A DNA stretch of 44,540 nt from Escherichia phage vB_EcoS-phiEc4. The position numbers were made by a program, and so were the translations under genes. Within the stretch, counting starts at the first letter, position 1. Every line of letters starts with the position of its first letter. This document shows positions 1,264 through 42,871 of the stretch, piece after piece. The DNA is taken from sequence record MZ576218, one strand, 5' to 3'. The notes beneath the pieces are model-generated. The model was not told where the DNA came from. It saw only the letters and a list, made by a program, of their open reading frames with translations, and did no database searches.

Positions 1264-2745
1264 ATGTTAACTATGAACGGTCAGAATCAGGGTGTTAAGA
1301 CAAAACACCGGGAATGGCTGCATCACTTCGATAAATGGCAGAAGGTACGCCACGCGCTGGAAGGCGACCTTATTCGCTATCTGCGCAACGTCGGGAAGAA
1401 CGAACCTGACCCGACCTACGCAGCCCAGCGCCAGGAAGAATACGAGAACGGTGCTATCTGTTACAACTTCACTAAACGTACCCTGGCGGGGATGACGGGG
1501 TCAGTGATGCGCAAAGACCCTGAGCAGATTATCCCGCCTGAACTTGAGTACCTGTTGCACAACGCTGACGGTTCGGGTGTAGGGCTGTGGCAGCACGCGC
1601 AGGATACGTTAATGGAGATTGACTCGATAGGACGCGGTGGGTTGCTGGTGGATGCCCCGGAAACAGCCGCAGCAACGGCGGCAGAGCAGAACGCGGGATT
1701 ATTAAACCCGGTAATCGCATTCTATACCGCGGAGAACATTATCAACTGGAGACTCACCCGCATCGGTTCAGTGAACCGCGTGACGATGGTTGTATTGCGT
1801 GAGGCATGGGAATACTCGGAACCAGGCGCTGAGTTTGAAACAAAATTCGGCGAGCAATACCGCGTCCTTGACCTGATTGACGGTCGCTACCGCCAGCGCA
1901 TCTACCGCTTCGATGCCGAAGGTGGCGCACAGGATGAAGTAATCGAAATCTTCCCGGAACTCGGCGAACAGTTGCGCGGTAAAATCCCGTTCACGTTCAT
2001 TGGCGCAAGCAACAACGACGCCACTATAGACGATGCGCCTTTACTGCCGTTAGCTGAGCTAAATATAGGACACTTCAGAAATTCGGCCGATGTGGAAGAG
2101 GCCAGCTTTATAGTAGGTCAACCGACACTGTTCATTGCCCCCGGCGAGAACATGAGCATGGAGCAGTGGAAAGAAGCCAACCCACACGGCATACGCATGG
2201 GGTCGCGTTCAGGCCACAACATCGGCTCCGGCGGAAATGCGTTTCTGGTTCAGGCGGCGGAAACTAACCTCGCCAAACAGAATATGCTGGATAAAGAGAA
2301 TCAGGCCATCCAGATTGGCGCGCAGCTTATCACCCCGACGCAGCAAATCACCGCGGAATCGGCCCGCCTGCAACGCGGCGCCGACACGTCAGTCATGGCA
2401 ACAATAGCACGTAATGTAAGCATGGCGTATACCGATGCGTTGCGCTGGGTTGCGGGTATGCTTGGGCTTAGTGAAGATACTGAGATTGAGTTCAAGCTGA
2501 ATATGGAATTCTTCCTGCAACCTATGACAGCTCAGGACCGCGCTCAGTGGATGGCGGATATTAACGCTGGCCTGCTACCCGCCACCGCTTACTATGCTGC
2601 GTTGCGCAAGGCAGGTGTGACTGACTGGACAGATGAGGACATTCAGAACGCTATTGAAGACGCACCTCTGCCGTTGGGTTCTGTTGCTCAGGTAGCGGGA
2701 GAGATTCCGCAGTCGGCGCAGCAACAGGACACCACTCAGCAGTAA
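1264..2745 (+). CDS. portal protein
   Basis: 493 aa ORF directly after terL, size and position typical of portal; acidic C-terminus. Confidence 0.75.
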   Translation: MLTMNGQNQGVKTKHREWLHHFDKWQKVRHALEGDLIRYLRNVGKNEPDPTYAAQRQEEYENGAICYNFTKRTLAGMTGSVMRKDPEQIIPPELEYLLHNADGSGVGLWQHAQDTLMEIDSIGRGGLLVDAPETAAATAAEQNAGLLNPVIAFYTAENIINWRLTRIGSVNRVTMVVLREAWEYSEPGAEFETKFGEQYRVLDLIDGRYRQRIYRFDAEGGAQDEVIEIFPELGEQLRGKIPFTFIGASNNDATIDDAPLLPLAELNIGHFRNSADVEEASFIVGQPTLFIAPGENMSMEQWKEANPHGIRMGSRSGHNIGSGGNAFLVQAAETNLAKQNMLDKENQAIQIGAQLITPTQQITAESARLQRGADTSVMATIARNVSMAYTDALRWVAGMLGLSEDTEIEFKLNMEFFLQPMTAQDRAQWMADINAGLLPATAYYAALRKAGVTDWTDEDIQNAIEDAPLPLGSVAQVAGEIPQSAQQQDTTQQ

Positions 2746-2755
2746 GTTCACCTAT

Positions 2756-2778
2756 AGCCCCGAAAGGGGCTTTCTTAT
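2756..2778 (+). terminator. hairpin AGCCCC-GAAA-GGGGCT followed by TTCTTAT
   Basis: stem-loop read directly after portal stop; weak U-tract, may be a partial terminator or stability element. Confidence 0.4.
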
Positions 2779-2781
2779 AGT

Positions 2782-3858
2782 ATGCTATTAACTTTAGCGC
2801 CACAGGGTTTATCTATGAGCTTACTTACATCCCTAATCAGCCATCAGATATGGCTGCAACGCACCGCATCCGGTGAGGTGAAAGACCTCACGCCGTTCAT
2901 TCAGGAGATAAGGGATGAAATCAAACGGCAGGTGCTGTTATTCGGTGACGACGGTCGCAGCACTGCGCGACTGAATAAACTGTTACGCGACCTGGAAGAA
3001 GCACTAACCGGTATTACGGGTGACTGGCAAACAAAGCTAACAGACGACCTTAAGGAACTGGCGGCGTACGAGGCTGAGTGGAACGTAAAGACACTGACCG
3101 CCAACGTAGACGCGGAATTTGTTACGCCTACCGCTGAGCAGGTATGGGCCGCTGCCGAGTTTCAACCATTATCATTGAGCGACAAGCCCGTTGATTTCAC
3201 CAAGCTGATGTCTGGATGGGGCGAAACGGAAGTAGCACGTCTTGTAACTGGAGTTAAGATGGGCTTTGTGCAAGGTCAAACCACACGGCAGATTGTTAAG
3301 AATGTTGTTGGCGCTGGTGGACTAGCCGACATCTCAGAACGTAACGCGGCTACGGTAATCCGCACCGCGCTGTCCCACGTATCCAACGAGGCCCGTAACG
3401 AGACGTACCGCCAGAACGACAACATCATCGAGAAGTACGAGTGGGTGTCAACGCTTGACAGCCGCACCAGTACGATTTGCAGGGTCAGAGACGGGATGAC
3501 GTGGGAAATTGGTAAGGGGCCGATGCCCCCAGCCCATCCGAACTGCCGGTCGTGCACGGCTCCGGTAATCAGTTCCGAGTTCGACTTCCTCGATAAAGGC
3601 GCAAAACGCGCGGCTAAAGGCGCGGAAGGTGGCACTCAGGTAAGCGCAGACACCACTTACTACGAGTTCCTTAAACAACAACCGGCGTGGTTTCAGGACC
3701 AGGCGCTCGGCCCGGTGCGAGGTAAGATTTTCCGTAACAGCGGTATATCGCCGGAAGAGTTTCGCGTAATATCTGTAGATGGTTTCGGGAATCCGCTCAC
3801 GCTTAAGCAGATGGCGGAACTCGATAAACGTGTTGCTGATTATCTGAAAGGGGAATAA
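2782..3858 (+). CDS. head morphogenesis protein (Mu F / SPP1 gp7-like minor head protein)
   Basis: 358 aa following portal; C-terminal Cys/His-rich region typical of the F-like family. Confidence 0.6.
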   Translation: MLLTLAPQGLSMSLLTSLISHQIWLQRTASGEVKDLTPFIQEIRDEIKRQVLLFGDDGRSTARLNKLLRDLEEALTGITGDWQTKLTDDLKELAAYEAEWNVKTLTANVDAEFVTPTAEQVWAAAEFQPLSLSDKPVDFTKLMSGWGETEVARLVTGVKMGFVQGQTTRQIVKNVVGAGGLADISERNAATVIRTALSHVSNEARNETYRQNDNIIEKYEWVSTLDSRTSTICRVRDGMTWEIGKGPMPPAHPNCRSCTAPVISSEFDFLDKGAKRAAKGAEGGTQVSADTTYYEFLKQQPAWFQDQALGPVRGKIFRNSGISPEEFRVISVDGFGNPLTLKQMAELDKRVADYLKGE

Positions 3859-4319
3859 TGATGGGCTTTTTCAAAGTAACTGACGTACCGTCTCGTCGCG
3901 TAGTCCAGTACGCCCGCGTGTCTGGCTCTGGCGAGAACGTGGTATTTATTGGGGGCGAAAGTGTACTCGGTACACCGGTAGATGATATGCCGTTTGCAGA
4001 TAAAACCGGTATTGCGTTGCCCGCCGCCGGTATGCTTTATGAAATTCCGTATCTGGCGGACGCTGGCGACGTGTATTTCTCTGCGCAACCCGCCGATACA
4101 GAACTGACAGACGGCAGCGCAGCTATCACTGTCGAAGTTAAGGCAGGTAAAGCGCCATATGCTCTGACCTGGTACAAAGACGGTAAGGAAGTGGTCAACG
4201 CCCCTGAAGAGGCTCTGTCTCTGACGGTTAATGCGGTCGGCGAATATTTCGTTAAAGTTACTGATGCCGATGGTGTAGAGGCGGTGAGTAAAGCGGCGAA
4301 GGTTACTAAGCCAGAATGA
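3858..4319 (+). CDS. Ig-like domain protein (possible capsid-associated)
   Basis: 153 aa; C-terminal segment ALTWYKDGKEV...GEYFVKVTDADG resembles an Ig-like fold; RBS AAAGGGG upstream. Confidence 0.45.
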   Translation: MMGFFKVTDVPSRRVVQYARVSGSGENVVFIGGESVLGTPVDDMPFADKTGIALPAAGMLYEIPYLADAGDVYFSAQPADTELTDGSAAITVEVKAGKAPYALTWYKDGKEVVNAPEEALSLTVNAVGEYFVKVTDADGVEAVSKAAKVTKPE

Positions 4320-4340
4320 TAAAAAGCCGGAATGATAAAA

Positions 4341-4368
4341 AGCCCCGCTATGGGGCTTTATTTTTATA
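4341..4368. terminator. bidirectional rho-independent terminator
   Basis: AGCCCC-GCTAT-GGGGCT hairpin flanked by A-run upstream and TTTATTTTTAT downstream; sits between convergent genes 3858..4319(+) and 4432..4776(-). Confidence 0.7.
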
Positions 4369-4431
4369 TGAACATCGCGGTGATAGCCGCAGCCGATACC
4401 CTCAAAACAAAATAAAACATCACACTATTTG

Positions 4432-4776
4432 TCATTTGCATTTCTCGTCGTATGTTTGTTGTAACTGCGACAGACGATTACCGGCTGTCATCTCGTCCAT
4501 AGAAGGCCCGGCGCCCGTGTCCATAAAGAACAGCGGAACAATCAGGAATGCGCCTGTAACACCGAGTACAACGTTAGTACCTATTTGCTTATTAACACGG
4601 TGCGTAGCGTTGGCTTGAGCTTGTTTTGTCGCGGCGATTCTCGATAGTAACTGATTACATGTTGCCGTTGTATCCCCCGCCTGATAAACCTGTAAAGCTG
4701 GGTCTGGCAACGACCTTACGCAACCACTCAAACAAACGGCTACAACACCTGCTACTGCTAATTTAATATATTTCAT
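4432..4776 (-). CDS. lipoprotein with C-terminal hydrophobic segment (superinfection-exclusion candidate)
   Basis: 114 aa; signal peptide with lipobox LSGC (MKYIKLAVAGVVAVCLSGC); own promoter upstream; antisense to structural genes. Confidence 0.6.
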   Translation of the reverse strand: MKYIKLAVAGVVAVCLSGCVRSLPDPALQVYQAGDTTATCNQLLSRIAATKQAQANATHRVNKQIGTNVVLGVTGAFLIVPLFFMDTGAGPSMDEMTAGNRLSQLQQTYDEKCK

Positions 4777-4874
4777 AGTTCACCATTACCTGTATCAATG
4801 TCACCGATACCACTACAAGCCCAAATAAACATCGCCACATCAACTGCAATTACTACTGAAATAACGACTAACAT
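4773..4874 (-). CDS. 33-aa hydrophobic micro-protein (MLVVISVVIAVDVAMFIWACSGIGDIDTGNGEL)
   Basis: not in ORF track (<60 aa); strong RBS GAGGAGG 5 nt upstream of ATG; stop overlaps start of lipoprotein gene (ATGA coupling). Confidence 0.35.
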   Translation of the reverse strand: MLVVISVVIAVDVAMFIWACSGIGDIDTGNGEL

Positions 4875-5249: not shown

Positions 5250-5636
5250 ATGAATCTTAAAGCAACCGTCGTAGCAGGAGCATGTTTCATCATCCTGGCT
5301 TACACACACGGCATTTATCAGTACCGCAGCGGCTGGCACGAAGGCCGCGCTAATCTCGTTTCGCAGCAACAGCAGAAAGCACAGGCCGAGTTAGCGAAGA
5401 AAACACAACGGCAGCAGCAGGATGAATCAAAGGCCGCCGCCGCTGACAACGAAGGCAAGACGAAATCAGAGGTGATCACCCGTGAAGTCGTTAAGTACAT
5501 TAAAACTCCTGGTCGCAGCGTGTGCACTTTCGACCCTGAGCGCGTGCAGCTCAAGTCCCGCGCCGTCGCAAACGCCAATTCCATCCCCGGATACGACGAT
5601 GATGCAGCCGCCGTGCAAGCTGGCACCGCCGAGTAG
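5250..5636 (+). CDS. i-spanin (Rz-like)
   Basis: 128 aa; N-terminal TM segment, Gln/Lys-rich charged periplasmic region; contains +1-frame lipoprotein ORF. Confidence 0.6.
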   Translation: MNLKATVVAGACFIILAYTHGIYQYRSGWHEGRANLVSQQQQKAQAELAKKTQRQQQDESKAAAADNEGKTKSEVITREVVKYIKTPGRSVCTFDPERVQLKSRAVANANSIPGYDDDAAAVQAGTAE

Positions 5637-5745
5637 CGACGCTGACGAGGATTTAGCTATCGACGTTCAGAACGCTGAATGCGTACGGCAGCTGCGGCTG
5701 AAAGTGTTCATGTTGCAGGATTACGTGAGGAATATTCTGGAATAG
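5482..5745 (+). CDS. o-spanin (Rz1-like lipoprotein), overlapped architecture
   Basis: 87 aa in +1 frame relative to Rz; signal peptide with lipobox LSAC; Pro-rich mature region. Confidence 0.6.
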   Translation: MKSLSTLKLLVAACALSTLSACSSSPAPSQTPIPSPDTTMMQPPCKLAPPSSDADEDLAIDVQNAECVRQLRLKVFMLQDYVRNILE

Positions 5746-5827
5746 TTGCCTTGCATGTTGGAATAATTTATTCTTGACATGTAAATCCGGGTGGCCCGGG
5801 TTCCAACGTCCAGGGGACATACTGACT

Positions 5828-6532
5828 ATGAATCGTTTTTTACGTTATCCGTTCCAGGAAGAAGCTGGGGCAGAAGATAAAGCTGGTGGCGGTGACGCGC
5901 CGAAAATGTTCACCGCTGAAGAAGTTCAGGCGCTGATTGAGAAAGAAGTTGCCGGGCTTAAGGCTAATCAGGAAGCATTGTTGGCGGAGAAGAAAGAAGC
6001 CGCTCGCAAAGCAAAAGAGGCCGAAGAAGAACGGCAGCGCGCGCACCAGGAGGCGTTAAAAGCCGCTGGTAAGATGGATGAGTTCGAAAAGACGATTCGT
6101 AGCCAGTATGACCCGGTGTTAGCCGAGAAAGACGGTCGCATCTCCAGAATGGCAGAGCGTATCCTCGGCAGCGAACGTAAAGCGGTGCTAGGCTCTTTCG
6201 CGGGTGACTTTATTACCCCAGAAGCAGTGGACATTCTTGCGCCGTTCGTTAAGACTGAGTTCGAAGGCGATGATGTGGTTACTAAGTTTGTTGGTGCAGA
6301 CGGTAACGTAATCACGACTGACCCGGAACAGTTCCGCAAATACTTGCGAGAACACAAAGCGTTTTCACATTTGATTAAAGCAAATGCAGCTTCCGGCGGC
6401 GGGGCTTCCGGTAGCAAAGGCGGCGGGGCCGCACCAGCGTTTAAAGACATGAGTGAAGCGGAGCGTATCGCTCTGTACGAATCGAACCCTGCCGAATTTG
6501 AACGGCAACTTAAAGCCCTGAGGAAAAAATAA
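5828..6532 (+). CDS. scaffolding protein
   Basis: track ORF 5774..6532, first ATG at 5828; coiled-coil-like charged sequence (EAL/KEA repeats), immediately upstream of major capsid gene. Confidence 0.6.
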   Translation: MNRFLRYPFQEEAGAEDKAGGGDAPKMFTAEEVQALIEKEVAGLKANQEALLAEKKEAARKAKEAEEERQRAHQEALKAAGKMDEFEKTIRSQYDPVLAEKDGRISRMAERILGSERKAVLGSFAGDFITPEAVDILAPFVKTEFEGDDVVTKFVGADGNVITTDPEQFRKYLREHKAFSHLIKANAASGGGASGSKGGGAAPAFKDMSEAERIALYESNPAEFERQLKALRKK

Positions 6533-10084: not shown

Positions 10085-10497
10085 TGGGCTACTTTGAGGA
10101 CTTAACAAAAGCGTTCGATGTGCCACTGGTAGCCTTCGGAACAGCAAACGGCATAAAGGTAGCGCTTGAAAACATCGACGCGCCGACGTCAACAGATACG
10201 CCGTATCTGGCAAGTTACATGTTGCTGGCGGATACCGAGCAGGCTGACTTATTCTTCACGGAACAACGCGCCGGTGTCTATCAGATAGACATTAACTACG
10301 CATCGGTGAAAGGTAGCGCGCCAATCAATAAAATGGCAGACTTACTTAACACGGCGTTTAAAGCAGGTAAGTCATTTTCACGTAACGACATCTGCGCCGA
10401 GGTTCAATCGGTAAGCCTGGGGCCGCTGATTGTAGAAAACGGATGGGCCAAAAGACCATTGTCAATTAACTTTATTGCATTCACCAAGAGGCTGTGA
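10081..10497 (+). CDS. tail terminator protein
   Basis: 138 aa immediately upstream of major tail protein gene; position-based. Confidence 0.45.
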   Translation: MMGYFEDLTKAFDVPLVAFGTANGIKVALENIDAPTSTDTPYLASYMLLADTEQADLFFTEQRAGVYQIDINYASVKGSAPINKMADLLNTAFKAGKSFSRNDICAEVQSVSLGPLIVENGWAKRPLSINFIAFTKRL

Positions 10498-11666
10498 ATA
10501 TGGCTACAACTCCTTTTAAGGGCGCGAATACCGCGCAATTCTATGTGGCGGAAGTGACCCCGGGCGTAACACCGGCTAACCCGGTATGGTCGCCGTTGCG
10601 CAACACGGGCGGCGTTCCTGCCATTACCCGCGACACGCTGACCTCCAACGAACTTGACGGCAGCCGAGAAACCACATCCATCCGCACCGGTAACAAGCAG
10701 GTTAGCGGAGAATACGCTATTGAGCTTAGCTCTAAAAGTCAGGACGACTGGTTAGCCGGGGCTTTAGGCTCTACGTGGCAATCCGGCGTTTCCCTGTCAG
10801 GACTATCGATTACCGTCGCACCCGCGGGCAAGACGTTCACACGCGCTACCGGCAGTTTTATCACTGACGGAGTTGGGGTAGGCGACCTGATTGCGTTTAC
10901 CGATTTAACAGGCGATAACGCAAAACCATTTATTGTTACTGCAGTAACGGCTACGGTTGTTACTGGTGCGGGCATCCAACACACCCTGACCACCGAGACA
11001 AAAACTAGTAAGGCTAAAACTGGCGACACGTTGGAAACCGGTAACACGTGTAAGACGTTCTCTATCCTTACCTGGTACAAAGGCCAGTGCGGCGGTACTG
11101 ACGCGTACACGTTAACCAAAGGCGTGGAAGTTTCTGGTTTTACCATCGAACAGGCTGTTAACGCGATGGTAACTGGCAGCTTCCCATTCATCGGTCGCAG
11201 TCAGGAGATTCTCACTACGCCGCCGACCGGTTCCAACTTCTCATCTGTTACTTTTGGTGATGAGCCGTTCTCTTCGGTTGACGTTTCCGTGTTCGATGGC
11301 TCTACGCCGTTGCGTTGTGATAGCCTTACCATCACCAACGACAACAGCGCGTCCGCGCAGTTCGAACTCGGCAACTCTAACGTTGCGTTTGTGGAACGTA
11401 GCCGCGCAGCTAACACCTTCTCCATCTCCGGTAAGCTGTATGACATGGCTATGATTCAGAAGTTTATCAACGAGCAGCAGGTAGAGATTAACTCTATTCT
11501 GGCAGGGGTAAACGGGGCTATGTCTTTCAGTTTGAAACGTGCAGAGCTTACGGCGGTTACACCAGAGATTGGCGGACCCGAGTCAATCACTCAGTCCATT
11601 GAGGGGCAGGCCACCGGCAACCAGTACCAGTCGTCTATCGTAATTCAACGTATCACCTACGCATAA
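10494..11666 (+). CDS. major tail protein
   Basis: 390 aa, Thr/Gly/Ser-rich beta-type sequence; followed by strong terminator; upstream of chaperone and tape measure genes. Confidence 0.7.
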   Translation: MNMATTPFKGANTAQFYVAEVTPGVTPANPVWSPLRNTGGVPAITRDTLTSNELDGSRETTSIRTGNKQVSGEYAIELSSKSQDDWLAGALGSTWQSGVSLSGLSITVAPAGKTFTRATGSFITDGVGVGDLIAFTDLTGDNAKPFIVTAVTATVVTGAGIQHTLTTETKTSKAKTGDTLETGNTCKTFSILTWYKGQCGGTDAYTLTKGVEVSGFTIEQAVNAMVTGSFPFIGRSQEILTTPPTGSNFSSVTFGDEPFSSVDVSVFDGSTPLRCDSLTITNDNSASAQFELGNSNVAFVERSRAANTFSISGKLYDMAMIQKFINEQQVEINSILAGVNGAMSFSLKRAELTAVTPEIGGPESITQSIEGQATGNQYQSSIVIQRITYA

Positions 11667-11671
11667 AACTA

Positions 11672-11697
11672 AGGCCCCTTTCGGGGCCTTTTTCTTA
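11672..11697. terminator. bidirectional rho-independent terminator
   Basis: AGGCCCC-TTTC-GGGGCCT followed by TTTTTCTT; between convergent major tail gene (+) and kinase gene (-). Confidence 0.75.
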
Positions 11698-12249
11698 CAA
11701 ACCTAATTTTAAAGCAATGTCTATAACGTTCGATTTAACGTCACCCGGTATGATGTAGGTGTCGTAATCTTTTACACCACTAACATCATACAGATAGCCA
11801 CGGCTATCGCCGATGAACGTATAGCCGTCACGATGGAGGCGAACGATTTGCACGTCATGCCCTGCGGCGACGATAGGGGCAACTTCACTGGCGAATCCAC
11901 CGTCGGACACTACAAAAACTTCGTCGCCGTCAGGCAAGTTTTCAGCAAGATACTTACCGAAATAATCATCGCCGAATACCGGTTTAATGAATTGCTCAGA
12001 AATGGCAATCATTAACTGGCGGCGGGACAACCCATTAAGAAAACCCTCGGGTTTTTCTTTCCGCGCCCGGTCGTCGTAGCCGTCGAGAAATTCGTGGTAA
12101 GCATCCTGGCCTAACGCTGCCAAAGCAATATTGAACATTGGATTCTTGAAACTGGTAGTTCCTTTCGCAAAGCCCATTTCTACCAGCGCCATAGCAAGCG
12201 TGTCTTTCCCGCAACCCGCAGGGCCATTAAGAATAATTACCTTAGCCAT
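11695..12249 (-). CDS. P-loop kinase, deoxynucleoside monophosphate kinase-like
   Basis: 184 aa; Walker A GPAGCGKDT; LSRRQLMIAISEQ segment resembles T4 gp1 dNMP kinase; start overlaps upstream stop (TAATG). Confidence 0.55.
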   Translation of the reverse strand: MAKVIILNGPAGCGKDTLAMALVEMGFAKGTTSFKNPMFNIALAALGQDAYHEFLDGYDDRARKEKPEGFLNGLSRRQLMIAISEQFIKPVFGDDYFGKYLAENLPDGDEVFVVSDGGFASEVAPIVAAGHDVQIVRLHRDGYTFIGDSRGYLYDVSGVKDYDTYIIPGDVKSNVIDIALKLGL

Positions 12250-12737
12250 TATTTATCGCTCCCGTGTGGTTTTAAGTGTGTAGAGTTCCCGTTACAGTCG
12301 TATTCGGTAACTGCGTGTGCGGTTATGCCGAGGTCACGGAAATGCTTTATTACCGCTGGAGAGTCGTCGAACGCACACAAGATTCTTTCCAGTCCGAAAG
12401 CACGCAACACCTCTTCTTTAATTACGATGTCTTTTCTGTTGTCGTGTTTGCTGCGCATGATTAGCGTGTCAAACCTAACGTTATTCTCTCGTAACCATTC
12501 GCGAGTCTCCTCCTCAGCGTCATCACTTCGCCCGGTAAGGATAATTATAGTAAGTCCGGAATGCCACAGTACGCTACACAAATGGATATTGTCGTATATC
12601 GGAGCGTCATCTTTGCAGGCCATGTTAAATGGCTTCCACGCCCACGTTTCTCCGTAGTTATCTTTTGGTAACAGGTGTAAGCGATGGGTACCGTCGGCCA
12701 ATGTCCCGTCTAAATCGAAAATTACAATATCTTTCAT
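12249..12737 (-). CDS. HAD-family phosphatase, T4 polynucleotide kinase 3'-phosphatase domain-like
   Basis: 162 aa; HAD motif I FDLDGTL, motif II LTGR, DNRKD..KEE and AFDDS segments closely parallel the T4 Pnk phosphatase domain. Confidence 0.7.
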   Translation of the reverse strand: MKDIVIFDLDGTLADGTHRLHLLPKDNYGETWAWKPFNMACKDDAPIYDNIHLCSVLWHSGLTIIILTGRSDDAEEETREWLRENNVRFDTLIMRSKHDNRKDIVIKEEVLRAFGLERILCAFDDSPAVIKHFRDLGITAHAVTEYDCNGNSTHLKPHGSDK

Positions 12738-13864
12738 CCCAGCATCTCCGGTGAAATAGTTAAACGTGCGACCTCGCCATATTCGGCGCTATAAGTAATT
12801 ACATTTGCACTGCGGCCCGACATCCATCCGCCGCGAGAGGCGTAGGCGTCTTTAGCCGCTAAGGTGCGGTGTTGCTCAACAATCATGTTACGGCTTTCTA
12901 CAATCTTCTGGTGGTGCAGATGGCCTACGTGGGCGTAGCTGTAAACACTCTCGCCGAACGCTTTACGGAACTTGGCAATCATAACCGGTTCGATAGCGTC
13001 GAATCGTGCTTTATGCCCGTGATGGAAGAACAGCGTCGTTTTGCCGTGTTGCACCATCTTGTAAACATCCGGCGACGTATCGACGAATACACGAGGCTCG
13101 TTGTCGTACAGTGTGCTGAACATCTCCGCCAGCCAAATCATCCCGGATTCGTCGTGGTTCCCCTGAACTATAAGCAAGCGAACAGTTTTATGCTTAACCA
13201 GAGCCATATCAACAACACGGCGGACCATGCGAATCATGTAGCGGACAAGTTTCTGGTAACGCGTGTCGGCGTCAAGGACATGACCACTCGCCGGTGTAAC
13301 GGCGTCAAGACTATCGAAGTGAGCTAAGTCGCCAAGAAGATTAATAACCCCCGTACCTGCATCCGGTGCTTTCTGAAACGCAGCATCAAACCAACGAGAG
13401 AATAAGTCCTCCGCGATTTTCATATCCCAGTCGTCGCCGCTCTCGTCAGCCCAGGCTAACATACCGAGATGGAAATCAGATACCGTGTAAAGATTGAGTA
13501 GTTTATCGTCACGTTTGGCTCGTGCCGGTTTAACAGGCGCAACGGGCGTAATCTCTGACTTCATGCCCTCTATTACGGCTTTCATCAATTCAACCTGACG
13601 TTCGGCATCAGCGTCGGTCTTAACCCATTGCAACTTAGTGTTGCCGAACTCGTCCACCAGGGACGACGTTCCTTTAATCTTGTAACCGTCTGGTACAAGG
13701 TGACTAACGTCGCGCCCGTGGCCTACGCCTTTCTTAGCCAGCTTCGCTTTACGGATTCGGATAACGCGGTCTGAGATTCCGTATTTACGGGCGATATCGA
13801 TATTCTTCATCCCGGCGTTCAATTCTTCCTGTAATTGCTCGTCGGTTATTTTCTTCTGGGCCAT
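12734..13864 (-). CDS. HTH domain fused to calcineurin-like metallophosphoesterase (SbcD/Mre11-like motifs)
   Basis: track ORF 12734..13969; likely start ATG 13864 with RBS GAGGAAG; motifs SDFHLG, GDLAHFD, GNHDE, HHGH, GHLHH; N-terminal basic HTH-like segment. Confidence 0.65.
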   Translation of the reverse strand: MAQKKITDEQLQEELNAGMKNIDIARKYGISDRVIRIRKAKLAKKGVGHGRDVSHLVPDGYKIKGTSSLVDEFGNTKLQWVKTDADAERQVELMKAVIEGMKSEITPVAPVKPARAKRDDKLLNLYTVSDFHLGMLAWADESGDDWDMKIAEDLFSRWFDAAFQKAPDAGTGVINLLGDLAHFDSLDAVTPASGHVLDADTRYQKLVRYMIRMVRRVVDMALVKHKTVRLLIVQGNHDESGMIWLAEMFSTLYDNEPRVFVDTSPDVYKMVQHGKTTLFFHHGHKARFDAIEPVMIAKFRKAFGESVYSYAHVGHLHHQKIVESRNMIVEQHRTLAAKDAYASRGGWMSGRSANVITYSAEYGEVARLTISPEMLG

Positions 13865-13902
13865 GCTTACTTCCTCGTGTTTAGGATTTGTCTTATAGTA
13901 GC

Positions 13903-14094
13903 CTACTTCTCTTTCACGTTCGAGTTGCAAGCCCAGATTAAAATGAATACCCACGGCAACAGAATCCACCCGAGAAATAAGTTAGCCATGAATATCGCCA
14001 GCTTTGCTTTATGGTTACGCATATGTGCCACCAAAAACGGGATAAAATAAACGGCTACAAAAATAATTAAGAAGAACATAGTGATACCGGTCAT
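13903..14094 (-). CDS. superinfection immunity (Imm-like) small membrane protein
   Basis: track ORF 13903..14121; likely start ATG 14094 with RBS AGGAG; pattern IPFLVAHMRNH...NLFLGWILLPW...LIWA resembles the small superinfection-immunity family as recalled. Confidence 0.6.
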   Translation of the reverse strand: MTGITMFFLIIFVAVYFIPFLVAHMRNHKAKLAIFMANLFLGWILLPWVFILIWACNSNVKEK

Positions 14095-14136
14095 AACATA
14101 ACTCCTGATTTGAGATAACATCGTTGGTGTAAGTGA

Positions 14137-14165
14137 ATAGTACGCTATTATATTGGGGGGTGCAA
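14137..14165 (-). promoter_or_regulatory. promoter P_A copy 2 (TTGCAC-17-TACTAT) with AATAG-TACG-CTATT palindrome
   Basis: near-identical to 4902..4930; drives the minus-strand Imm/phosphoesterase/phosphatase/kinase operon. Confidence 0.6.
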
Positions 14166-14272
14166 GTAGTGTGCTAGAATAATTTTGCGCCTAGTGTCGC
14201 ACACGAAAAGCGGGTGGTTCCCGTCTGGCGCATTTCCTTTAACCAGTAACCTCTTAACCAAAGGATTAAAGA

Positions 14273-14689
14273 ATGAAACTTTCTGATTTTTATTACGAAG
14301 CGGAAGCCGAAAAGGGCGCACGTATGCCGATACCGCTAAAAGACGGTACTGATTCCGGGGAATGGCTTAATGTTGTTTCTCCTGAGGCGGACGTTGCCGT
14401 TAAGGCTATGCGCGCGTTCACCCTTGCATACCGGGCAGTATTAGGGAAATTAAAACCGCTTCGTGATAAGTGCGAAGAGATGAAAGATTTCTCTGAATAC
14501 AACCTGAAGATGGAAGACGCGGCGACGGACCTTAACCGTCAGTTAGCGATTGAATTGGTTAACGGGTGGAGCCTTGACGACGAATTCAATAAAGAGAATC
14601 TGAACACACTCCTGACGCAATATAAACGACTCGCGGAACTTGTTGTTGTGTTTCATAACGAACAACTGCACCAGCTACAGGAAAAGTAG
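14273..14689 (+). CDS. tail assembly chaperone (G-like)
   Basis: 138 aa immediately upstream of tape measure gene; followed by -1 frame ORF lacking its own RBS. Confidence 0.55.
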   Translation: MKLSDFYYEAEAEKGARMPIPLKDGTDSGEWLNVVSPEADVAVKAMRAFTLAYRAVLGKLKPLRDKCEEMKDFSEYNLKMEDAATDLNRQLAIELVNGWSLDDEFNKENLNTLLTQYKRLAELVVVFHNEQLHQLQEK

Positions 14690-14694
14690 ACGCG

Positions 14695-15054
14695 TTGCTC
14701 CAGTTCGCCCGTTGGAACTTCATAACCCGCCACAAACGGCGGGAATTTGACAGTATCGCCGATGGGCATAAAGCCGCGCTAATTGCTATGGGGGTTATGC
14801 AAGACGCGCCGGATGCAACGCAGGCCGCTGGGCCGGAATGCCCCCCTGAGCTACTAACCACATTTGAGAAGTACAGGGAAATTAAATTCACCCGCCGAGT
14901 GGACGACGACGGCATCAAGATGTACCCGCGCGAGCAATTACGATGGTCAGATTTAGTGGCGTACAGCACCGTTTCAGGCCAGAATATAGGGATGTTCGAA
15001 TCCGACATCATCATGAGCTTAGACGCTATTTTCGAGGGTAGAAACGATGGCTGA
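14695..15054 (+). CDS. tail assembly chaperone T-domain, probably expressed as G-T fusion by -1 frameshift
   Basis: -1 frame relative to 14273..14689; frame open from 14659; near-slippery GGAAAAG at 14680..14686; no ATG or SD at its 5' end. Confidence 0.45.
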   Translation: MLQFARWNFITRHKRREFDSIADGHKAALIAMGVMQDAPDATQAAGPECPPELLTTFEKYREIKFTRRVDDDGIKMYPREQLRWSDLVAYSTVSGQNIGMFESDIIMSLDAIFEGRNDG

Positions 15055-42025: not shown

Positions 42026-42031
42026 TAAATC

Positions 42032-42096
42032 ACCTCCTGTTCCATCCCTCTGCTCTCCAGTTTTATCCCGGCCCTGACCCAGCCGGGATTTTTTTA
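42032..42096 (+). ncRNA. candidate ~65-nt small RNA with CCUCC anti-SD-like motif
   Basis: bounded by promoter 41997..42025 and terminator 42065..42096; no ORF. Confidence 0.35.
42065..42096 (+). terminator. rho-independent terminator
   Basis: ATCCCGGC-CCTGACCCA-GCCGGGAT followed by TTTTTTTATC. Confidence 0.7.
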
Positions 42097-42117
42097 TCTA
42101 TTTCCGATAATGACTAG

Positions 42118-42146
42118 TTGACTATTACCACCGACCCTATTATATT
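42118..42146 (+). promoter_or_regulatory. sigma70-like promoter (TTGACT-17-TATATT)
   Basis: read directly; about 35 nt upstream of ATG 42181. Confidence 0.55.
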
Positions 42147-42180
42147 TACTCCATCGACAACGAGAACGGAGTAGAGAGAA

Positions 42181-42330
42181 ATGAAAATCACAGATATCGA
42201 TGCATTCGAAGACGCACAACTGATGGCACGCATCGCCGTCAATAACCTGAGTGGTAATATCCCGGCGGATGCGTTCTGGGCCGCCGCGATGCAGACACTG
42301 AAAGCCGCTTATGCAGGAGAGAAGAAATGA
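42181..42330 (+). CDS. 49-aa hypothetical protein
   Basis: not in track; RBS GGAGTAGAG; ATGA overlap with next ORF. Confidence 0.45.
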   Translation: MKITDIDAFEDAQLMARIAVNNLSGNIPADAFWAAAMQTLKAAYAGEKK

Positions 42331-42485
42331 GTGAACAAGGTCAAGTAAGCCAACCGTTACGAGTAGGCCGTAAAGTCAGTCACACCCCGTTCCCGACACG
42401 TGAAGAACTGATGAAACGTAACAGTTTCCCGGGGCCGGACAAGAACAAGTATCTCAATCGCATGTGGGGAGAGCGTAAAGAATGA
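42327..42485 (+). CDS. 52-aa hypothetical protein
   Basis: not in track; translationally coupled on both sides. Confidence 0.45.
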   Translation: MSEQGQVSQPLRVGRKVSHTPFPTREELMKRNSFPGPDKNKYLNRMWGERKE

Positions 42486-42871
42486 CTGACCGCGAATATG
42501 AAAAGATGATGGTTGAGGCCGTTAACAGCGGCGTAGACATCGGACACGTGATGCGCGTCCTGAATACTAAAATCGCGGTAGCCGAGCAAATGGTCGAGTC
42601 GCTTTACGAGACGCGCCGTATTCTGGTGCTTGAGTCGGAGAAACAGACGTTAGGAGGGCAACTGTCGATTAACGGTGAGTTTCAGCTGGAGGCGTTCCGT
42701 ATACTCCTCGGCGTTATGAAGCAGGAACCCAGCGCATACGCAGGAGTGTTCCTTGACGAGGAAGGTTCGCAGACACTAAGTTACTACGCTACCGAAGAAG
42801 AATTAGCGTTCGACGGCCCCGCGGTATCTATCCCGCTGTTCGATAACTGGATGGTGTACGACTATGACTAA
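42482..42871 (+). CDS. hypothetical protein
   Basis: 129 aa track ORF, ATGA coupling. Confidence 0.5.
   Translation: MTDREYEKMMVEAVNSGVDIGHVMRVLNTKIAVAEQMVESLYETRRILVLESEKQTLGGQLSINGEFQLEAFRILLGVMKQEPSAYAGVFLDEEGSQTLSYYATEEELAFDGPAVSIPLFDNWMVYDYD

Follow-up and report, generated by a model that had tools for sequence, protein, structure and literature searches.

The 44,540-nucleotide window analysed here, the whole stretch of DNA from Escherichia phage vB_EcoS-phiEc4 (sequence record MZ576218), carries within its tail gene cluster a leftward operon of four genes, which encode an Imm-like membrane protein, a helix-turn-helix (HTH) metallophosphoesterase, a HAD phosphatase and a P-loop kinase. 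We tentatively read this operon as a cassette for DNA breakdown and deoxynucleoside monophosphate (dNMP) salvage with an exchangeable membrane-protein gene in front, and it probably serves DNA or nucleotide metabolism rather than RNA end healing. The metallophosphoesterase would be a two-metal DNA nuclease of the Mre11/SbcD/DP1 structural type, held on DNA by its N-terminal HTH, and would degrade DNA, most plausibly the host chromosome. The HAD protein, of the PseT type, would strip phosphate from DNA 3' ends or from mononucleotides, and the kinase, of the gp1 type, would turn dNMPs into deoxynucleoside diphosphates (dNDPs), which host Ndk could convert to triphosphates (dNTPs) for the phage's own DNA polymerase. 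In front of these lies an independent, exchangeable gene for a membrane protein of the T4 Imm family.

All four open reading frames (ORFs) lie on the minus strand where the preliminary description had placed them (Table 1), with the same starts annotated in Escherichia phage vB_Eco_K-02 and in Kagunavirus golestan, and they are, far beyond chance, real genes. Profile searches and structure models likewise upheld the domain assigned to each of the four proteins. The three enzyme genes overlap: the metallophosphoesterase stop and the HAD start share ATGA (12734-12737), and the HAD stop and the kinase start share TAATG (12247-12251). Because 38 nt lie between the Imm-like gene and the metallophosphoesterase ATG, which has a ribosome-binding site to itself, translational coupling, at first ascribed to all four genes, applies to the three enzyme genes.

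Table 1. Positions of the leftward operon and its borders in the window
Feature	Position	Strand	Details
Shared hairpin terminator	11671..11690	both	Between tail-tube stop 11666 and kinase stop 11695
Kinase-like protein, P-loop of T4 gp1 (dNMP kinase) type	11695..12249	-	184 aa
Stand-alone HAD phosphatase, T4 PseT (Pnkp) phosphatase-domain type	12249..12737	-	162 aa
HTH-metallophosphoesterase, nuclease-like	12734..13864	-	376 aa from ATG behind GAGGAAG ribosome-binding site; PHROG 704
Imm-like membrane protein, swappable first gene	13903..14094	-	63 aa; AGGAG ribosome-binding site; two hydrophobic segments
Divergent intergenic region	14095..14272	.	178 bp; candidate leftward promoter

The metallophosphoesterase matches PHROG 704 ('DNA repair exonuclease') with an E-value of 6e-168. 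Its matches to Pfam Metallophos and Metallophos_2 fall below the cut-offs, and membership of the calcineurin-like metallophosphoesterase superfamily is confirmed by motifs and fold: five metal-binding motifs (DxH, GD, GNH, H and GHxH) are invariant in 89 diverse members, and the structure model (mean predicted confidence, pLDDT, 93) shows a sandwich-fold core at residues 119-376, preceded by three N-terminal helices (8-44) and by a beta-hairpin and helix (61-104). Motifs II and III read GDxxH and GNHD, which we take to be the Mre11 forms of these motifs, and the N-terminus gave weak matches to GerE/LuxR-type HTH domains. The nearest folds of the model are DNA nucleases, with protein-phosphatase-like members scoring about 9; the margin of the nucleases over small-molecule metallophosphoesterases is modest, and sequence-level matches to Mre11/SbcD-type nucleases are marginal (E about 0.1). 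A search of the BFVD viral structures returned only uncharacterised phage metallophosphoesterases. In contrast to Mre11, SbcD and archaeal PolD DP1, the window protein has no capping domain and carries the N-terminal HTH and beta-hairpin domain. No Rad50/SbcC, SMC-like ATPase or polymerase partner adjoins its gene in the window, and the protein does not correspond to the lambda-phosphatase-like module of a kinase-phosphatase-ligase protein of the Clostridium thermocellum Pnkp type. The enzyme looks catalytically intact, DNA-associated and nuclease-like.

The kinase, in which Pfam detects the P-loop only, matches PHROG 139 ('deoxynucleoside monophosphate kinase') at 5.8e-45; T4 gp1 and T1 ST62 fall into the same PHROG at 1.8e-65 and 1.1e-46, respectively. 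When 53 diverse homologues were aligned, the GxGKD P-loop was invariant together with a set of basic and acidic residues, and the AlphaFold model built from this alignment (pLDDT 94) has a predicted fold closest to that of T4 dNMP kinase (PDB 1dek), to which the window protein is 21% identical over a shorter chain (184 versus 241 aa). The P-loop is GKD, as in gp1, versus GKS in PseT; sequence profiles compared with the PDB, T4 gp1 and T4-type PseT aligned the P-loop alone and did not discriminate. The PHROG 139 profile and a P-loop NMP-kinase fold nearest gp1 place the protein in the T4 gp1 dNMP kinase family, and no Pnk-type polynucleotide 5'-kinase domain, fused or partnered, was found.

The HAD protein matches Pfam HAD_PNKP at 3.3e-20, above the 27.6-bit cut-off, and PHROG 415 at 3e-64, and its PDB matches are Capnocytophaga Pnkp1 (4xrp; 4e-6) and T4 Pnkp (2e-3). 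In an alignment of the window protein with homologues from Webervirus, T1 and CF7 and one T4-type PseT, the DxDGT motif (D8, D10, T12), R19, R70, D99, K107 and D124-D125 are invariant. The protein thus has the DxDxT nucleophile motif and the PseT catalytic residues of a PseT-type 3'-phosphatase, and it has the DxDGT motif, phosphate-binding arginines and DD motif in common with T4 PseT/Pnkp (1ltq) and Capnocytophaga Pnkp1. The parallel drawn in the preliminary description with the 3'-phosphatase domain of T4 polynucleotide kinase is therefore sound, but the window protein, unlike T4 PseT/Pnkp, stands alone at 162 aa without a fused polynucleotide kinase. The T4-like Krischvirus GEC-3S also encodes a stand-alone HAD protein, 44% identical to that of the window, whose gene overlaps the nrdB stop in the order nrdA-nrdB-HAD and lies upstream of denA (2341-3974, extracted-locus numbering), and the same genome has a second HAD match that is presumably its pseT gene. 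The presence of a stand-alone HAD beside nrdB in addition to this second match suggests that the stand-alone subfamily has a role distinct from that of Pnkp.

Gene order across phages ties the three enzymes together. Klebsiella phage KL (Webervirus, Drexlerviridae) arranges the metallophosphoesterase, HAD and kinase genes likewise, ahead of holin and endolysin genes, and the Webervirus homologues are 42-58% identical to the window enzymes. In Aeromonas phage CF7 (Autographiviridae) the genes for an HTH-metallophosphoesterase, a HAD protein and a kinase overlap and adjoin those for an exonuclease and an endonuclease VII. Similarity between the CF7 metallophosphoesterase (PHROG 221) and that of the window was undetectable, and homology between the two types was rejected as the comparisons were not significant. 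We surveyed 80 viral loci centred on the kinase, searching the upstream 6-kb flank for the other two genes: 75 had a HAD gene and/or an HTH-metallophosphoesterase gene there, with the full metallophosphoesterase-HAD-kinase triad in 26, a HAD gene 0.1-2 kb upstream of the kinase in 41, and a PHROG 221-type HTH-metallophosphoesterase directly upstream without HAD in 8; the kinase was alone in 5. The synteny comparison with Webervirus and the 26 triad loci thus bears out that the three enzymes act as a linked unit, and the occupation of the position next to the kinase by two unrelated HTH-metallophosphoesterases argues for a functional link between these enzymes and the kinase. Large phages place close relatives of the HAD and of the kinase beside genes of nucleotide metabolism: a homologue of the kinase is encoded immediately before ThyX and NrdA in the rV5-like phage HdK5, and the HAD of GEC-3S adjoins nrdAB. 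These settings point to nucleotide metabolism.

The metallophosphoesterase is an autonomous enzyme to which the HAD-kinase pair has repeatedly been attached. The PHROG 704-type family comprises 4642 representative clusters at E < 1e-3 and occurs in 2052 phage records; more than a thousand phages have the metallophosphoesterase alone, without HAD or kinase. The gene recurs beside lysis genes in unrelated phages (Drexlerviridae, two Vibrio phages and a Rhodobacter Casjensviridae phage), and it lies after DNA ligase and RusA resolvase genes in Campylobacter phage NCTC12673. Jerseyvirus AG11 has the metallophosphoesterase only, between two small unrelated genes, and by tblastn distributions Jerseyviruses in general lack HAD and kinase. 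The small gene downstream in AG11, gp21 (76 aa; 4628-4858, extracted-locus numbering), has no Pfam match. Its resemblance to phage proteins of about 240 aa (PHROG 2452; PHROG 17613, 'ATPase') is confined to their C-terminal third, and it may be what remains of a gene or else a domain that stands alone. T1 carries all three enzyme genes: its early left arm contains ST64 (HAD) and ST62 (kinase) on either side of an HNH gene, and ST16 (metallophosphoesterase) stands about 12 kb away, ahead of the lysis genes. The two T1 HNH homing-endonuclease genes (5465-5959 and 42028-42510) lie between HAD and kinase and directly after the metallophosphoesterase, respectively, which suggests that the cassette loci are homing targets and may indicate how the cassette splits or moves.

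The Imm-like protein matches Pfam Imm_superinfect (PF14373) at 1.8e-13, with 50.6 bits against a 27.9-bit cut-off, and PHROG 1039 at 3e-24. The profile match and the two hydrophobic segments read from its sequence make it a member of the T4 Imm family, and by analogy it would act in superinfection exclusion. Among 16 Kagunavirus loci from IMG/VR, 11 have the Imm-like gene, in two alleles about 70% identical to each other, and the other five have in its slot (about 3950-4385, extracted-locus numbering) an unrelated gene with a signal-peptide-like N-terminus, apparently the gene of PHROG 14165 (109 aa) that fills this position in AG11 (3109-3438, extracted-locus numbering). The swap junction lies directly after the conserved GGTACTATTCAC of the candidate promoter. 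Since these five loci have another gene in its place and the cassettes of Webervirus and CF7 lack it, we do not count it as part of the unit, and the earlier picture of a self-contained module that includes an immunity-like membrane protein has to be given up.

Several published findings are in keeping with DNA breakdown and salvage. Phages T1 and TLS degrade the host genome and reuse its nucleotides, and as of 2024 the genes responsible had not been identified (PMC11447400). The predicted metallophosphatase A1 of T5 is necessary and sufficient for host DNA digestion (bioRxiv 10.64898/2026.04.02.716235), and a mycobacteriophage metallophosphoesterase disrupts host DNA (PMC12287305). In 522 Drexlerviridae genomes, polynucleotide kinase and dNMP kinase genes most often follow a 'DNA repair exonuclease' gene, an order for which that 2026 analysis suggests an enhanced 'nucleotide supply' (PMC13164509). 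Of the two functions offered in the preliminary description, the nucleotide-pool unit fits better than end healing. A more specific proposal, possible but doubtful, is that the HTH-metallophosphoesterase is the host-chromosome nuclease of T1-like phages and Kagunaviruses, an analogue of T5 A1, within a portable 'demolish and recycle' triad that is swapped among Guernseyvirinae, Drexlerviridae and Autographiviridae and in which the two non-homologous HTH-metallophosphoesterases are interchangeable.

Some points weigh against the favoured reading. The functions of all four proteins are predictions from sequence, and we infer from the comparisons above what the enzymes act on, when the operon is expressed and how it is connected to the degradation of host DNA. 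The substrate of the HAD protein is the least certain step, and its role is the weakest link: it is not obvious what a 3'-phosphatase would do where 5'-dNMPs are the product, and if phosphatase and kinase shared the same dNMPs as substrates, their combined action would be futile. Similarity of the metallophosphoesterase to T5 A1 is not significant (BLASTP E 0.26). The only likeness is NHD..S.WL after GNHD, at 13140-13165 of the window (residues ~229-247) and residues 389-407 of A1, and hhalign gives 20% probability over 19 columns with the segments in register, which is too weak for homology; the two proteins belong to different PHROGs (A1 to PHROG 1745). Jerseyviruses retain the metallophosphoesterase without HAD and kinase, and many phages have it singly, beside lysis genes or DNA ligase and RusA. 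It thus also works without the other two enzymes and may serve the processing of phage DNA instead of the breakdown of host DNA.

Four other explanations were weighed. That the metallophosphoesterase and HAD hydrolyse free nucleotides, remodelling the pool or destroying an immune second messenger while the kinase rebuilds the wanted pool, we consider unlikely. The idea follows the PUA-Calcineurin-HAD system of bacteria, whose metallophosphoesterase and HAD protein have been documented experimentally as a cascade from dNTP through dNDP to dNMP (bioRxiv 10.64898/2026.01.15.699771), and the operonic position of the GEC-3S HAD with ribonucleotide reductase is consistent with it. However, the window metallophosphoesterase has an N-terminal HTH and nucleases as its top structural matches, the defence HAD is of the capped C1 type, unlike the PseT-type protein of the window, and PADLOC models match none of the four window proteins, which also lack a PUA domain. 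An NCBIfam search of the window proteins gave nothing informative. The related idea that kinase or HAD scavenges m6-dAMP to evade PUA-Calcineurin-HAD was set aside as unsupported: Tunavirinae phage Bas12 is still restricted, and gene carriage is known from T1.

The chances are slimmer that an SbcD/Mre11-like metallophosphoesterase processes phage DNA ends for replication, recombination or packaging, with HAD and kinase as mere neighbours. The PHROG 704 annotation and the fold are compatible with such a role, as are the ligase and RusA neighbours in NCTC12673, the many phages with this enzyme alone, and its persistence next to lysis genes in 508 of 522 Drexlerviridae, which suggests late expression (PMC13164509). 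Yet no gene for a Rad50/SbcC-like partner lies beside it in the window, and two non-homologous HTH-metallophosphoesterase families that each stand directly upstream of the kinase are hard to explain without a functional link.

End healing as a counter-defence, the lead function of the preliminary description, we regard as very unlikely. The HAD protein would clear 3'-phosphates or 2',3'-cyclic phosphates, the P-loop protein would phosphorylate 5'-OH ends, the metallophosphoesterase would trim, and a host enzyme would seal the cleaved tRNA or nicked DNA. In its favour, the HAD protein truly belongs to the T4 Pnkp phosphatase family and has intact catalytic residues; here, in Webervirus and in CF7 its gene adjoins that of the kinase and is translationally coupled to it, like a split Pnkp in phosphatase-kinase order; and DNA ligase genes follow the kinase in Vibrio phage phi-A318 and precede the metallophosphoesterase, together with RusA, in NCTC12673. 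Against these stand the GKD P-loop and the fold nearest gp1, the nucleotide-metabolism settings of the kinase family (HdK5), the nuclease folds nearest the metallophosphoesterase, and the operonic association of the stand-alone HAD with nrdAB in GEC-3S, where pseT is presumably the second HAD match. An RNA or DNA ligase is annotated in none of the 78 genes of the collinear Golestan, though a host ligase is possible. For the kinase fold and the unannotated ligase, a split Pnkp of HAD and polynucleotide kinase was dropped as the lead and kept as a minor possibility.

Least probable of all is that four independent accessory genes merely occupy one permissive insertion site. The first gene is clearly exchangeable, Jerseyviruses hold a different gene set there, the T1 genes are split, and the guanine-plus-cytosine (GC) contents of HAD (0.46) and kinase (0.48) are below that of the metallophosphoesterase (0.51, the genome mean), but phages of different families repeat this gene order, overlaps of stop and start codons included, and 75 of the 80 kinase loci show the association upstream. 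Composition was rejected as a sign of recent insertion, the GC differences being small and decisive in neither direction.

In the terminator hairpin, AAGGCCCC-TTTC-GGGGCCTT, an 8-bp stem with 6 G-C pairs encloses a 4-nt loop, and a terminator-like call was made on both strands, in line with the bidirectional terminator first proposed; the T-run is good on the plus strand (TTTCTT) and weaker on the minus strand (AGTTTTAT). The candidate promoter in the intergenic region (TTGCAC at 14165-14160, a 17-nt spacer and TACTAT at 14142-14137) matches 7 of 12 consensus positions and is overlapped by a perfect TATAAT at 14152->14147; the consensus scan gave no call for 14165->14137. The intergenic region is nearly invariant among Kagunavirus loci whose extracted sequence reaches the promoter element, and the -10-proximal part of the element is kept upstream of the alternative first gene in the five loci that have it. 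A leftward promoter near 14137-14165 is therefore plausible but unproven; the operon may have its own promoter, as had been proposed, but nothing supports calling it early. The same region presumably carries a rightward signal for the tail-chaperone genes. A 37-aa ORF within it (14148-14261, minus strand), which the K-02 annotation lists as a 'hypothetical protein', is unlikely to be a gene.

The operon is flanked by a 390-aa tail-tube gene (10494..11666) and, from 14273 onward, by the tail-chaperone and tape-measure genes. The two tail-chaperone ORFs (14273-14689 and 14695-15054, the latter starting at TTG) have the arrangement of the G/GT pair in lambda-like phages. Combination and placement had been called unusual, but the slot is a subfamily trait, and T4 gene 1 (2650-3375, extracted-locus numbering) lies among the tail and baseplate genes 57A-1-3-2-4-53-5, so that a nucleotide kinase in a structural cluster has a precedent; the placement is hence no sign of an exotic role. 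A megablast search with positions 11000-15000 matched 391 phage records, with K-02 (Kagunavirus) on top at 99.6% identity over 100% of the query, and the window is collinear with Golestan (Guernseyvirinae) from terminase to the lysis genes; it is essentially the complete genome of a coliphage of an already-sequenced type.

As a sequence feature the cassette is ordinary: dozens of deposited genomes have it annotated, every gene has been annotated in near-identical ones, the HAD-PNKP domain has been described in the Golestan paper, and the order of the triad has been reported (PMC13164509). The comparative result, that in three phage groups the kinase is found again and again with a PseT-like HAD and with one or the other of two non-homologous HTH-metallophosphoesterases, is modestly interesting. 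If the favoured reading is true, it supplies candidate genes for the T1-type destruction of the host chromosome and rebuilding of DNA, still unassigned in 2024 (PMC11447400). It would also bear on the safety of phage therapy, since uropathogenic and K1 E. coli are among the targets for which Kagunaviruses and T1-like phages are employed. For T1 mutants with a defect in the degradation of the host chromosome, the title of a 1981 paper by Roberts and Drexler, cited in PMC11447400, reports transduction at higher frequency. Breakdown of host DNA releases the m6-dAMP signal that PUA-Calcineurin-HAD senses, and knowledge of the phage genes that produce or consume dNMPs would help to predict sensitivity to defences of this kind.

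Among known systems, the pre-early leftward operon of T5 is similar in architecture. It comprises A2 (DNA-binding), T5.005 (two transmembrane domains), A1 (metallophosphatase) and Dmp (dNMP phosphatase), so that, as in the window, an HTH function, a small protein with two membrane segments, a metallophosphoesterase and a nucleotide phosphatase are combined in one leftward operon. No significant sequence similarity links the two operons: T5.005 is not similar to the Imm-like protein, and with homology to A1 rejected the parallel is architectural only. Whereas T5 discards nucleotides through Dmp, the window cassette adds a kinase, and its membrane gene is dispensable to the cassette. The PUA-Calcineurin-HAD defence resembles the window pair in coupling a metallophosphoesterase to a HAD phosphatase, which in that system act on deoxynucleotides (bioRxiv 10.64898/2026.01.15.699771), but it protects the host, its Calcineurin-CE is fused to a PUA sensor and its HAD is C1-capped, and the window genes do not belong to it. 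Likened by description, the metallophosphoesterase gp48 of mycobacteriophage A10ZJ24 is expressed early, disrupts host genomic DNA and aids infection (PMC12287305). Also comparable are the 'DNA repair exonuclease - polynucleotide kinase - dNMP kinase' cassette of Drexlerviridae and T1 ST16/ST64/ST62, whose proteins are homologous to those of the window and whose order in Webervirus is the same. The Drexlerviridae cassette precedes the lysis cassette and T1 has its HAD and kinase genes split by an HNH gene, whereas the cassette of the window lies inside the tail cluster.

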